A program made the translations under genes and the position numbers. Under the pieces are notes generated by a model that was given only the letters and a program-made list of their open reading frames with translations, ran no database searches and was not told the DNA's origin. A stretch of 64,000 nucleotides of DNA from Escherichia coli (GTDB lineage Bacteria; Pseudomonadota; Gammaproteobacteria; Enterobacterales; Enterobacteriaceae): the NCBI RefSeq assembly GCF_965641715.1, contig NZ_OZ282453.1. One strand, written 5' to 3'. Below, piece after piece: positions 551 through 2,323 of the stretch. Positions within the stretch are counted from its first letter, which is position 1, and every line of letters begins with the position of its first letter.

Positions 551-742
551 TTACAGGCGATCAGTTCTGCAGACACTGCCGGACACCGTCGACAATTTCA
601 CAGACCTGAGAAGCTGTATCGAAAAGCTGACGCGCCTTATCGAAGCAGACACATCCACCAATAAAAAAGGCACCAGTATCGCTACCAGTGCCCATTTCGC
701 CGCCGTTCGCGGCATTCTGTGTGTCCAGTGTTTTCTGCTCAT
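551..742 (-). CDS. small membrane protein (63 aa), hypothetical
   Basis: ORF MSRKHWTH... with one hydrophobic helix (WALVAILVPFLLV); start 1 nt after stop of upstream small ORF; no recognisable homologue. Confidence 0.25.
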   Translation of the reverse strand: MSRKHWTHRMPRTAAKWALVAILVPFLLVDVSASIRRVSFSIQLLRSVKLSTVSGSVCRTDRL

Positions 743-743
743 G

Positions 744-917
744 TCACCACCACCTGACCGCACTAACCAACTGTGCAATACCATACAAGCACAAGCAGAA
801 CGCTCCAGCCTTGATTAACCAGGCGGTAGCTACACTGATTTCACTTGTTAACGGAGATTTCAGTTCAAGGCCGTTTCTCATTGTCAACATCAGCAGTATT
901 CTTTTATACTTCTCCAT
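744..917 (-). CDS. small C-terminally anchored membrane protein (57 aa), hypothetical
   Basis: Manual translation MEKYKRILLMLTMRNG...VATAWLIKAGAFCLCLYGIAQLVSAVRWW; below the 60-aa cutoff of the ORF track; downstream of the endolysin. Confidence 0.25.
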   Translation of the reverse strand: MEKYKRILLMLTMRNGLELKSPLTSEISVATAWLIKAGAFCLCLYGIAQLVSAVRWW

Positions 918-1118
918 GAGGATTTTCTCCGCAGTTATTAAAATTCTTGTTATTCATACTTCTCCCTTGTCTTACTCAAGGTCAGAGAACTCAAAACCCC
1001 GGACTGTTCCAGCAGCCGGGGTTTTGCTATCGGATGCCATACCCTTTACTTTCGCTCATCGTAACCCCAGAAAAGAGCCAGCAAGAGTTGAGGGTATTCA
1101 GCACTTCAGTGTCAGTTT

Positions 1119-1673
1119 TTAAGTTACCACGCGTTCTTTTATCCAGCCGTAGACAAACGACTCGTTGGCCTCGCGCTTCTCTGCCAGCTCCAGATAACGG
1201 TTACCCTGAGTGCAGTTCAGTGCCGTCAGCATCACCAGTTCACCATCTTTACCGCGTTTTTCCAGAAATGCGCGTAATGCGTTAATGGTACGGGGGCCGA
1301 TACACCCGTCTGCATCCATATCCGGATACAGTTTCCCGCCCTGATTGAAGACATTCAGCCATCGCTGAAGCATTTTTGATGCCACTGACTGCCCCATGTT
1401 TACACCTGTATCACACAGTTCAGCAGCAATATCCGGCGACAGCGTTGCCACCTGGTCAAAACGTGGCCCGTACCAGTAATCCGCCTCGAGGATTTCCAGC
1501 GCCTGCCCACGCGTCAGGTCACGCATATCCCCCTGATGACCGTGTGCGCGGGCAACTTTTTCAGTAATACCCCATTTAGTCGGACCGCCTTTATCATCCG
1601 GGTGATTGACGTAACCGCCCTCTTTTCCCAGGATTTCATCAAAAACTTCATCTCTCGATTTCATATCAGCCAC
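1119..1673 (-). CDS. phage endolysin, glycoside hydrolase family 108 with peptidoglycan-binding domain
   Basis: 184-aa protein (MADMKSRDEVFDEILGKEGGYVNHPDDKGGPTKWGIT...) typical of GH108/PG-binding phage lysozymes; directly follows holin-like genes. Confidence 0.8.
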   Translation of the reverse strand: MADMKSRDEVFDEILGKEGGYVNHPDDKGGPTKWGITEKVARAHGHQGDMRDLTRGQALEILEADYWYGPRFDQVATLSPDIAAELCDTGVNMGQSVASKMLQRWLNVFNQGGKLYPDMDADGCIGPRTINALRAFLEKRGKDGELVMLTALNCTQGNRYLELAEKREANESFVYGWIKERVVT

Positions 1674-1944
1674 TCAGCAAGGCAAAAATTTTTGAAACAT
1701 TCCCGCGTGCGCGTATCACCAGTACGCAGAACACCAGGTTAAACAGGACGACCAGCCAGTTTCCCGGCGGAAAATGACCACACAGATAACTTAACGGCGT
1801 TATCGCATACAGCAGCATCAGACACCAGGCACACCACGATATCAGCGGTTTGTGTCGGGACGCTTTTCTGCGGTAGAAAAAAAGCGTCAGCACGATAACC
1901 GTACACAACGCCACATTCAGAAATCCGGGAAGATTATTTGACAT
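1666..1944 (-). CDS. holin-like small membrane protein (92 aa)
   Basis: Hydrophobic segments; overlaps endolysin start by 8 nt; G-rich RBS upstream. Confidence 0.45.
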   Translation of the reverse strand: MSNNLPGFLNVALCTVIVLTLFFYRRKASRHKPLISWCAWCLMLLYAITPLSYLCGHFPPGNWLVVLFNLVFCVLVIRARGNVSKIFALLSG

Positions 1945-2323
1945 TACCCCCCCTTCCCCGCTGACGGGATAACAGACCGGGTACCAGCGATGTAATCTCC
2001 TGCTGGTGGATGAATGACAGGACCTTTACTGAAACCACCGACACCAGTACTGCACACAGAGCATCCGCAGATGTGCCGTCATAACCTGTTTTTGATGCAA
2101 TCCAGGCAGACAGCACGCGCGCGCCCAGCACACCAACAATAAAGGACACCAGGAAATGTGCAGCCACACGCCAGGCTGAAAGCGTCTGCGGCATTGTTGC
2201 CACAAACAACGCCCCTGCGAATGCACCAAACACAATCCCGAAATCCGTTCCGGTAAACAGCCCGAATACCGTCGCCCCTCCGAGCGCCGCCGCCGTACCG
2301 GAACCGGATAAGGGTTCAGACAT
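1934..2323 (-). CDS. holin-like membrane protein (129 aa)
   Basis: Start MSEPLSGSGTAAALGG chosen at internal ATG with AGGAGA RBS; three hydrophobic helices; first gene of the lysis cassette. Confidence 0.5.
   Translation of the reverse strand: MSEPLSGSGTAAALGGATVFGLFTGTDFGIVFGAFAGALFVATMPQTLSAWRVAAHFLVSFIVGVLGARVLSAWIASKTGYDGTSADALCAVLVSVVSVKVLSFIHQQEITSLVPGLLSRQRGRGGNVK

Follow-up and report, generated by a model that had tools for sequence, protein, structure and literature searches.

How would a prophage that carries holins and an endolysin, and no recognisable spanin, open the outer membrane of its host? The question is raised by positions 551 to 2,323 of a 64,000-nt stretch of Escherichia coli DNA (assembly GCF_965641715.1, contig NZ_OZ282453.1); the whole stretch is referred to here as the window, and coordinates are window positions unless another record is named. 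An initial annotation of this locus had noted holin-like genes and a GH108 endolysin, followed by two tightly coupled small open reading frames (ORFs) of 57 and 63 amino acids (aa), for which spanin-like or lysis-regulating functions, or a role as membrane toxins, were considered. The genes make up a late lysis operon of the phiP27 type, carried by a lambda-like prophage at the Rac site of E. coli. Taken as a whole, it is probably best explained as an operon that relies on a solitary outer-membrane lysis lipoprotein, acting without an inner-membrane spanin subunit (i-spanin), and in this particular prophage the lipoprotein is dead.

The 63-aa ORF (551..742, minus strand), which begins 1 nt past the stop codon of the 57-aa ORF, is a frameshift product and not a native gene. 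At the same position the E. coli prophages PapRG-04-4, EC11 and MEI7BO1-21 carry an intact 60-aa ORF encoding a lipoprotein precursor, MSRKHWTHRMPRTAAKWALVAILVPFLLVGC followed by VSLDKARQLFDTASQVCEIVDGVRQCMQN, and a DNA alignment with these three alleles places a single missing G in the window copy. The window copy is a pseudogene, with the following parts:

655..656, minus strand: frameshift site, a CC run that is CCC in all intact homologues (GGTGGG to GGTGG; GGTGGATG versus GGTGGGATG on the coding strand)
653..742, minus strand: lipoprotein pseudogene, 5' part, read from the ATG at 742 and specifying the signal peptide MSRKHWTHRMPRTAAKWALVAILVPFLLV
561..652, minus strand: lipoprotein pseudogene, 3' part, encoding the out-of-frame mature domain CVCFDKARQLFDTASQVCEIVDGVRQCLQN

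The deletion, in which a G is lost from GGTGGGATG, sits immediately 5' of the lipobox cysteine codon (651..653), and because of it the lipid-attachment site is lost and the mature domain is out of frame: GC... becomes DVSAS..., and the window copy has neither an intact LLVGC lipobox nor in-frame C48 and C57. The surviving frame of the mature domain lies inside a 44-aa ORF at 561..695 (P0372 in our profile search). The family profile phrog_7528 matches residues 1-31 of the 63-aa ORF (E 2.7e-14) and the restored protein, or a close allele, over its full length (E 7e-39), and the pseudogene lies 3' of the endolysin gene on the same strand. The single transmembrane (TM) helix ascribed to the 63-aa ORF is the signal peptide of the lipoprotein; the reading frame exists as described, but the native membrane protein does not. 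The coupling of the two small ORFs likewise holds as a 1-nt spacing, but not as a functional pair, because most cassettes with the lipoprotein lack the 57-aa ORF. Outside the window we found the frameshift allele in one strain alone, E. coli EC416, which matches the window at 97% identity across the cassette; IMG/VR yielded more than 270 intact relatives but no copy of this allele.

The intact lipoprotein belongs to a family annotated as 'unknown function' in PHROG. The precursor is 60 aa long, of which about 30 residues form the mature part; it has no Asp at position +2, and its C-terminus is a hydrophilic tail with no TM segment. Across 31 sequences, the divergent members of which (to about 37% identity) came from an exhaustive profile search, the LLVGC lipobox (Gly-Cys) and the two mature-domain cysteines C48 and C57, spaced eight residues apart, are invariant; these two might hold a C-terminal loop together or join the protein into dimers. 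Conservation of the signal peptide is unusually high, and the ratio of nonsynonymous to synonymous substitution rates (dN/dS) is about 0.16. The lipoprotein gene is genuine and evolves under purifying selection. We found it in 306 of 5426 complete E. coli genomes (about 6%), and also in Salmonella, Citrobacter, Cronobacter and Yersinia; a decayed copy is found in Raoultella, where a gene for an MscS-like channel lies 3' of it. The gene is often missed in annotation: RefSeq leaves it unannotated in EC416 and PEC41, and phiP27 L32 was called in the wrong frame across it.

The genes that precede the pseudogene in the window, in the order of transcription, are:

1934..2323, minus strand: holin-family gene 1, 129 aa, PF16931 Phage_holin_8 (E 1e-24) and phrog_198 holin
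1666..1944, minus strand: holin-family gene 2, 92 aa, PF05449 Phage_holin_3_7 (E 2e-20) and phrog_217 holin
1119..1664 (ATG at 1664) or 1119..1673 (alternative GTG), minus strand: endolysin, 181 aa from the ATG, PF05838 GH108 and PF09374 PG_binding_3 (E about 1e-26)
993..1029, minus strand: G+C-rich hairpin (AAAACCCCGG...CCGGGGTTTT), about 90 nt past the endolysin stop
744..917, minus strand: 57-aa small membrane protein with a basic N-terminal tail and a C-terminal TM segment (residues about 29-54), ending in RWW

The assignment of holin-like genes and a GH108 endolysin on the minus strand is borne out by these profile matches. The two holin-family proteins score well above the gathering cut-offs (87.2 bits against 26.4 for PF16931, and 72.8 bits against 25.4 for PF05449) and are small multi-TM proteins encoded 5' of the endolysin, and homologues of the first carry the RefSeq annotation 'putative holin'. 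Their genes overlap by 11 nt, and the endolysin ATG lies 1 nt past the stop of the second. The endolysin belongs to the GH108 family and is soluble, with neither a signal-arrest-release nor a TM segment; its RefSeq homologues are 546 nt long.

The same gene order frames the lipoprotein elsewhere. In a survey of 86 loci (80 from IMG/VR, phiP27, four E. coli genomes and the window), the lipoprotein gene follows a PF16931 gene, a PF05449 gene and an endolysin gene (M15 peptidase or GH108) in 80 of the 80 loci that retain upstream sequence. The commonest arrangement, seen in 33 loci, places it directly after an M15 endolysin, with a gap of 14 nt in one example that was checked, and in Yersinia and the Salmonella locus L099 the GH108 stop overlaps the lipoprotein ATG. 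Divergent homologues occupy the same slot behind a lambda-S-type PF05106 holin and an M15 endolysin. Overall, the slot after the endolysin is kept with three holin families and two endolysin types in about 100 loci and six genera. It is the position that Rz/Rz1 occupy in lambda.

No i-spanin was found in any of the approximately 100 loci that carry the lipoprotein. An all-frame scan within about 1.8 kb at 88 loci returned no conserved ORF with an N-terminal TM segment, only heterogeneous junk ORFs, and no conserved candidate that combined an N-terminal TM segment with a periplasmic coiled-coil in an embedded, overlapping or adjacent gene. Two ORFs found between endolysin and lipoprotein in some loci were considered as partners and rejected: a 93-aa ORF is soluble and not conserved, and an 82-aa ORF encodes a C-terminal-TM protein and is not conserved either. 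Homology to Rz/Rz1 was not detected by Pfam, NCBIfam or PHROG spanin profiles, nor by phmmer against lambda Rz and Rz1, and the window in its entirety holds neither an Rz/Rz1 homologue nor any other small lipobox ORF; the reported lack of an Rz/Rz1-like pair 3' of the endolysin thus extends to the full 64,000 nt. The lipoprotein is also distinct from unimolecular spanins of the T1 gp11 type, which join a lipobox to a C-terminal TM segment. As lipobox lipoproteins, the intact relatives would fit the description of an outer-membrane spanin subunit (o-spanin), and the window copy does not. The complete genomes of phiP27, vB_Apl-pPE4 and phiSTEC1575-Stx2k carry no annotated spanin; close to the lysis genes of all three, no small lipobox ORF other than this lipoprotein is present, and the few lipobox ORFs elsewhere are unlike Rz1. 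Phage GER2, which has a canonical S-R-Rz cassette, retains only a decayed remnant of the lipoprotein gene. Among the relatives examined, none had the same holins with a canonical spanin replacing the lipoprotein, and the GER2 remnant is the sole co-occurrence with Rz.

The initial annotation had also allowed for a canonical spanin just beyond the start of the window. What lies at that edge is the following feature:

1..33: end of a lambda-type cos region, at the flank of cos that faces the lysis genes

Positions 1-560 are 100% identical to EC416, in which the homologous cos stretch matches the genome ends of lambda, HK629 and HK630, and the 'cos site' feature of DE3, at 96.9% identity, and in which a Nu1-like gene for the terminase small subunit starts about 160 bp beyond the point matching the window start (EC416 annotation; L001 5443-5634). 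Since cos and the terminase small subunit occupy this place in EC416, no spanin is hidden past the window edge.

The lipoprotein family has appeared once before under another description. In a 2018 census of spanins, Kongari et al. (BMC Bioinformatics 19:326; PMC6139136) classed phiP27 as having a 'separated' two-component spanin made up of singleton i-spanin and o-spanin families; at 62 residues, its combined periplasmic length is below that of any other pair in the census, and the supplement places the o-spanin at 20706..20861 and the i-spanin at 20348..20542 of NC_003356 (PMC6139136). The o-spanin interval is exactly the phrog_7528 lipoprotein, which is 93% identical to our query and shares its lipobox, its cysteines and its position after the endolysin, the difference being that a frameshift interrupts the window copy. 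As for the i-spanin, it is an ORF of 64 aa that starts with TTG. It has no PHROG match, it was not found at any other of the 80-odd lipoprotein loci, and it runs antisense to a 90-aa ORF that matches phrog_36812 with an E-value of 5e-20 (L002 4329-4601; 20332-20604 in the phiP27 record). For these reasons the i-spanin call looks spurious, and since the assigned i-spanin is not conserved and appears to be spurious, the published two-component classification of phiP27 is doubtful. The absence of a recognisable spanin therefore stands as regards Rz/Rz1 homologues, but not as regards the census, where the intact family is already catalogued; of the roles first suggested, the spanin-like one comes closest for the second ORF, through its intact homologues, although the window copy itself is a pseudogene. 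Our search of the literature on disruptin, spaninless phages and orphan o-spanins found no report of the phrog_7528 lipoprotein beyond this census, in which 91 of 677 phages of Gram-negative hosts (about one in seven) had no recognisable spanin (Kongari et al., 2018; PMC6139136).

We propose that, where the gene is intact, the late lysis transcript would direct synthesis of the lipoprotein, with translation coupled to that of the endolysin gene. The precursor would then receive its lipid and be routed by the Lol system into the outer membrane, on the inner-leaflet side; this destination is suggested by the lack of Asp at +2. There it may serve as the outer-membrane-disruption factor of the cassette, acting after the endolysin has removed the peptidoglycan. 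It would do so without a conventional i-spanin and without bridging to a partner in the inner membrane, as none is encoded nearby in the approximately 100 loci. The weakest step of this proposal concerns the 57-aa protein, which would most likely modulate lysis at the inner membrane in the manner of Lcc6 or of an antiholin accessory factor. Because the lipoprotein is inactivated in the window, the resident prophage would lack the last lysis step, and its host cells would be expected to stall as spheres under conditions that stabilise the outer membrane, such as the presence of Mg2+.

A number of observations weigh against this proposal. The case for an outer-membrane role is one of gene position and coupling. 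The mature domain of about 30 residues is too short to span the periplasm, and there is no established mechanism by which it would act alone. The mature peptide is slightly acidic (net charge -1) and moderately amphipathic (hydrophobic moment, muH, about 0.45), unlike the cationic disruptin, and an AlphaFold2 model built from the 31-sequence alignment is uninformative, consisting of one long helix with a pLDDT of 63. Small lipoproteins encoded near lysis genes can be morons, as is lambda Bor. The gene is evidently dispensable in prophages, with independent frameshifted or decayed alleles in the window and EC416, in P0374, in P0362, in Raoultella and possibly in STEC711; the lesions in P0374, P0362 and NZ_CP041417.1 (299642-299823) are a T-run frameshift, a late frameshift and a 182-nt alignment against a 183-nt query, and the gene is one that decays recurrently in prophages. 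In the E. coli LT-II prophages SerU-LTIIb and Rac-SA53 (L087, L088), toxin genes take the place of the lipoprotein: the LT-II genes lie directly after the GH108 endolysin and replace both the small ORFs and the lipoprotein gene. Finally, the modulating role suggested for the 57-aa protein is conjectural.

Several known systems invite comparison with the lipoprotein. Colicin and cloacin lysis proteins (bacteriocin release proteins, BRP) are very small lipoproteins, with mature parts of about 28-35 residues and an LxxC lipobox, that permeabilise the envelope alone; the BRP signal peptide is functional and stable. The phrog_7528 lipoprotein may be likened to these proteins (PF02402), its closest analogues in function, in its size, its lipobox and a conserved signal peptide that recalls BRP, and it differs from them in lying in a phage late operon, not a colicin operon, and in having two extra conserved cysteines; the Lysis_col profile PF02402 gave no match to the small ORFs at E <= 1. 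With lambda Rz1 and other o-spanins it shares a precursor of about 60 aa, the lipobox, the lack of Asp at +2, periplasmic cysteines and a gene that follows the endolysin. It differs from them in that there is no sequence similarity (no Pfam or phmmer match) and no embedded, overlapping or adjacent i-spanin gene, and in a mature domain that is not proline-rich and is predicted to be helical (83%; Kongari et al., 2018; PMC6139136); at 30 aa this domain is the shortest in that census. Disruptin, phage phiKT gp28, is a small cationic peptide without a lipoprotein signal that has been proposed or shown to replace spanins (bioRxiv 10.1101/515445). The likeness lies in a small protein for outer-membrane disruption in a spanin-less phage; the differences are the lipobox and the net charge of -1 of the mature lipoprotein, which keep it outside the disruptin class.

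A bolder version of the proposal, which we put forward tentatively and rate well below the general one, is that the phrog_7528 lipoprotein is a self-sufficient disruptor of the outer membrane and represents a third class beside spanins and disruptin. With the wall cleared by the endolysin, a lipid-anchored helical peptide of about 30 residues, disulfide-stapled or dimerised, would act from the inner leaflet to destabilise the outer membrane, perhaps via OmpLA as with colicin lysis lipoproteins. If this were true, the 'two-component spanin' of phiP27 in the literature would be a misassignment.

The main rival explanation is that the lipoprotein has nothing to do with lysis and is a moron or accessory outer-membrane lipoprotein, serving superinfection exclusion, receptor masking or host fitness in the way of Llp, Cor or Bor, and simply occupying the variable stretch that separates the lysis genes from cos. 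Morons are indeed known from the interval that runs from endolysin to terminase, in which LT-II toxin genes and genes for KilA-N, alpha/beta hydrolase and MscS-like proteins are found; the recurrent loss or frameshifting of the gene and a mature domain too short for a spanin subunit also agree with this view. However, a moron would hardly be expected to show the stop/start overlaps, or gaps of only 0-14 nt, that tie the gene to the endolysin, to be always on the same strand and mostly without a promoter or terminator of its own, or to keep its place directly after the endolysin through the changes of holin family, endolysin type and genus described above. Known exclusion lipoproteins adjoin tail or receptor-binding genes, and the phages in question would otherwise be without any outer-membrane lysis factor. 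The overlap and the kept position in particular weaken the moron explanation, which we regard as unlikely.

That the lipoprotein is still produced in the window strain, either because the missing base is an assembly error or because ribosomes slip by -1 on a heptamer, is very unlikely. The missing base does fall in a short G run, and 9 nt 5' of the deletion the sequence U_UUU_UUA (codons PFL) fits the X_XXY_YYZ pattern in form only; a -1 slip there would restore the frame as ...PFL-IGGC-VCFDKAR..., with a usable lipobox and a -1 frame that stays open to the native stop. Yet EC416, an independent complete genome, carries the identical allele, and the absence of this allele from the IMG/VR homologues is what would be expected of a recent lesion. 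The heptamer is the conserved PFL coding sequence of all intact genes, hence not selected for slippage, and no stimulatory structure follows it; the heptamer is probably coincidental.

The 57-aa ORF raises a separate possibility, that of a minimal two-component spanin. The C-terminal TM helix reported for it is confirmed, residues 29-54 being its sole hydrophobic stretch. The protein matches phrog_1115 (E 1.5e-16) and phrog_4493 (E 2.7e-11), and Pfam, NCBIfam and PHROG scans of both small ORFs returned 'unknown function' PHROGs only; both families are conserved in related prophages, as the initial annotation had suggested checking. Relatives of the 57-aa protein share the C-terminal hydrophobic segment, have variable N-termini and range from 37 to 71 aa in length. 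Other tiny C-terminal-TM ORFs (phrog_4906, phrog_6632) interchange with it between endolysin and lipoprotein, mostly in E. coli cassettes of the GH108 type, and most cassettes have no tiny TM insert at all. The RWW end is encoded in the junction AGGTGGTGG TGA c ATG, which forms the Shine-Dalgarno region of the lipoprotein gene; because the RWW codons double in this way, the inserts keep translational coupling to the lipoprotein gene. We regard the 57-aa ORF as an optional insert and, since its TM anchor is C-terminal and it appears to have no periplasmic domain, not as an i-spanin.

If the 57-aa protein were nevertheless the i-spanin and the lipoprotein the o-spanin, bridging the membranes like Rz/Rz1, this would account for a membrane protein and, when intact, a lipoprotein being encoded by adjacent, translationally coupled genes with a 1-nt spacer, for the two conserved periplasmic cysteines, as in spanins, and for the 'separated' two-component classification of phiP27 by Kongari et al. 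Such a pair is highly improbable. Only RWW lies beyond the TM segment, and the combined periplasmic length would be about 33 residues, against the 62 of the shortest census pair. The 57-aa ORF is missing from most lipoprotein loci (the 33 of the M15 type, Yersinia, and Salmonella L099, L106, L107 and L110), is replaced by different tiny TM ORFs in others, and is not the ORF that Kongari et al. named as i-spanin. A closer precedent for the 57-aa protein may be Lcc6 of the Shewanella phage LambdaSo, a 65-aa TM protein needed for lysis at the level of the holin (bioRxiv 10.1101/2024.01.23.576932). By its description, Lcc6 offers an example of a tiny single-pass membrane protein as an essential or accessory lysis factor; it differs in that LambdaSo uses a pinholin and a signal-arrest-release endolysin and in that the 57-aa family is optional.

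The remaining suggestion, that the small ORFs encode membrane toxins or peptides like those of type I toxin-antitoxin systems, or that the 57-aa ORF alone does so under the control of an antisense RNA, fits the tiny size and hydrophobicity of the proteins, a plus-strand promoter-like sequence facing the hairpin and a weak Rfam match, but is highly improbable, as there is no Pfam, NCBIfam or Rfam toxin-antitoxin match, including to the Hok, Ldr, Ibs or TisB families, the ORFs are always sense-strand members of the late lysis operon, and the 63-aa ORF owes its existence to the frameshift. The promoter-like sequence, TTGTCA-18-TATACT (881..910, plus strand, 10 of 12 matches), is antisense to the first codons of the 57-aa ORF and faces the bidirectional-looking hairpin at 993..1029, so that transcription from it could give an RNA of some 110 nt complementary to the 57-aa ORF leader; such promoter-like matches are not enriched in the region (3 found, 4.2 expected). 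The Rfam match, to the 'sar' antisense RNA at 965-1028, scores 21 bits, far under the threshold of 43. Across positions 1-3300, a tRNA is the sole Rfam match above threshold.

The inverted repeat at 993..1029, also noted in the initial annotation, folds with an energy of -28.4 kcal/mol (z -2.4), and the hairpin together with about 100 nt of preceding sequence is conserved where Cronobacter and other strains of E. coli have cassettes of the GH108 type. Its appearance is that of a terminator or an RNA-stability element, and it is part of the GH108 insert module. The modular nature of the region is plain from the nearest relative of the window prophage, the Rac-site prophage of PEC41 (L093), which is 98.4% identical across the neighbouring 24 kb: where the window has the GH108 endolysin, the hairpin, the 57-aa ORF and the broken lipoprotein gene (551-1673), PEC41 (10943-11680) has an M15 endolysin and, directly adjacent, an intact, unannotated lipoprotein gene. 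This is a clean module swap between near-identical prophages. Within the conserved 100 nt after the GH108 stop lies a mini-ORF, MSESKGYGIR*, that ends at a TAG (1027-1104, minus strand); in one Salmonella prophage (L100 5263-5511) this TAG is TGG, and the frame crosses the hairpin to give an 82-aa C-terminal-TM protein (phrog_6632). This suggests that the small TM ORFs arise by fusion and truncation around the mini-ORF and hairpin.

A second hairpin, terminator-like and with 11 pairs, lies within the signal-peptide codons of the lipoprotein gene (668-693, minus strand; WALVAILVPFLL) and is followed by TTTTTT at 662-667, the T-run that also contributes to the U_UUU_UUA heptamer. An embedded RNA element at 693..668 was considered as the cause of the extreme conservation of these codons and dropped, as synonymous variation is low across the whole gene; in this check, made on a mostly E. 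coli sample, there was no clear local excess. In the non-coding gap of about 500 bp from the pseudogene to cos there are two plus-strand copies of CCGGTTTTTTATTT, at 232-245 and 366-379, which close the stems CCGGCA...TGCCGG and CCGGT...ACCGG and look like terminators oriented against the late transcript.

On the other side of the cassette, a tRNA-Gly gene (anticodon TCC; 2782-2856, minus strand) lies between the Q region and the lysis genes; in relatives this slot holds Arg/Ile, Gly/Thr or Met/Arg/Arg tRNA sets or toxin genes (stx2e, stx2k, pertussis-like). An ORF for an AraC-family regulator (3274-4077, minus strand), whose counterpart in PEC41 is annotated as AraC family, lies between a Q-like antiterminator (4261-4923, DUF1133/Q-like) and the tRNA, and is likely a moron in the slot proximal to the late promoter. 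Toxin genes (LT-IIa/b, pertussis-like or ArtAB-like) flank this lysis cassette in L087, L088, the Yersinia locus L098 and L102-L105.

Disruptin is, to our knowledge, the only spanin alternative so far described. In the window itself the lipoprotein gene is an ordinary pseudogene in a mosaic prophage; the family is a moderately interesting lead that can be tested directly. The cassette is found in about 6% of complete E. coli genomes and in Shiga-toxin and LT-II toxin prophages, and the sole candidate it offers for an outer-membrane factor is a solitary lipoprotein whose mature part has about 30 residues. If this lipoprotein works alone, it would be a new and very small membrane-disrupting module, a published spanin assignment would be corrected, and the finding would bear on how toxin-carrying prophages release both toxin and virions.

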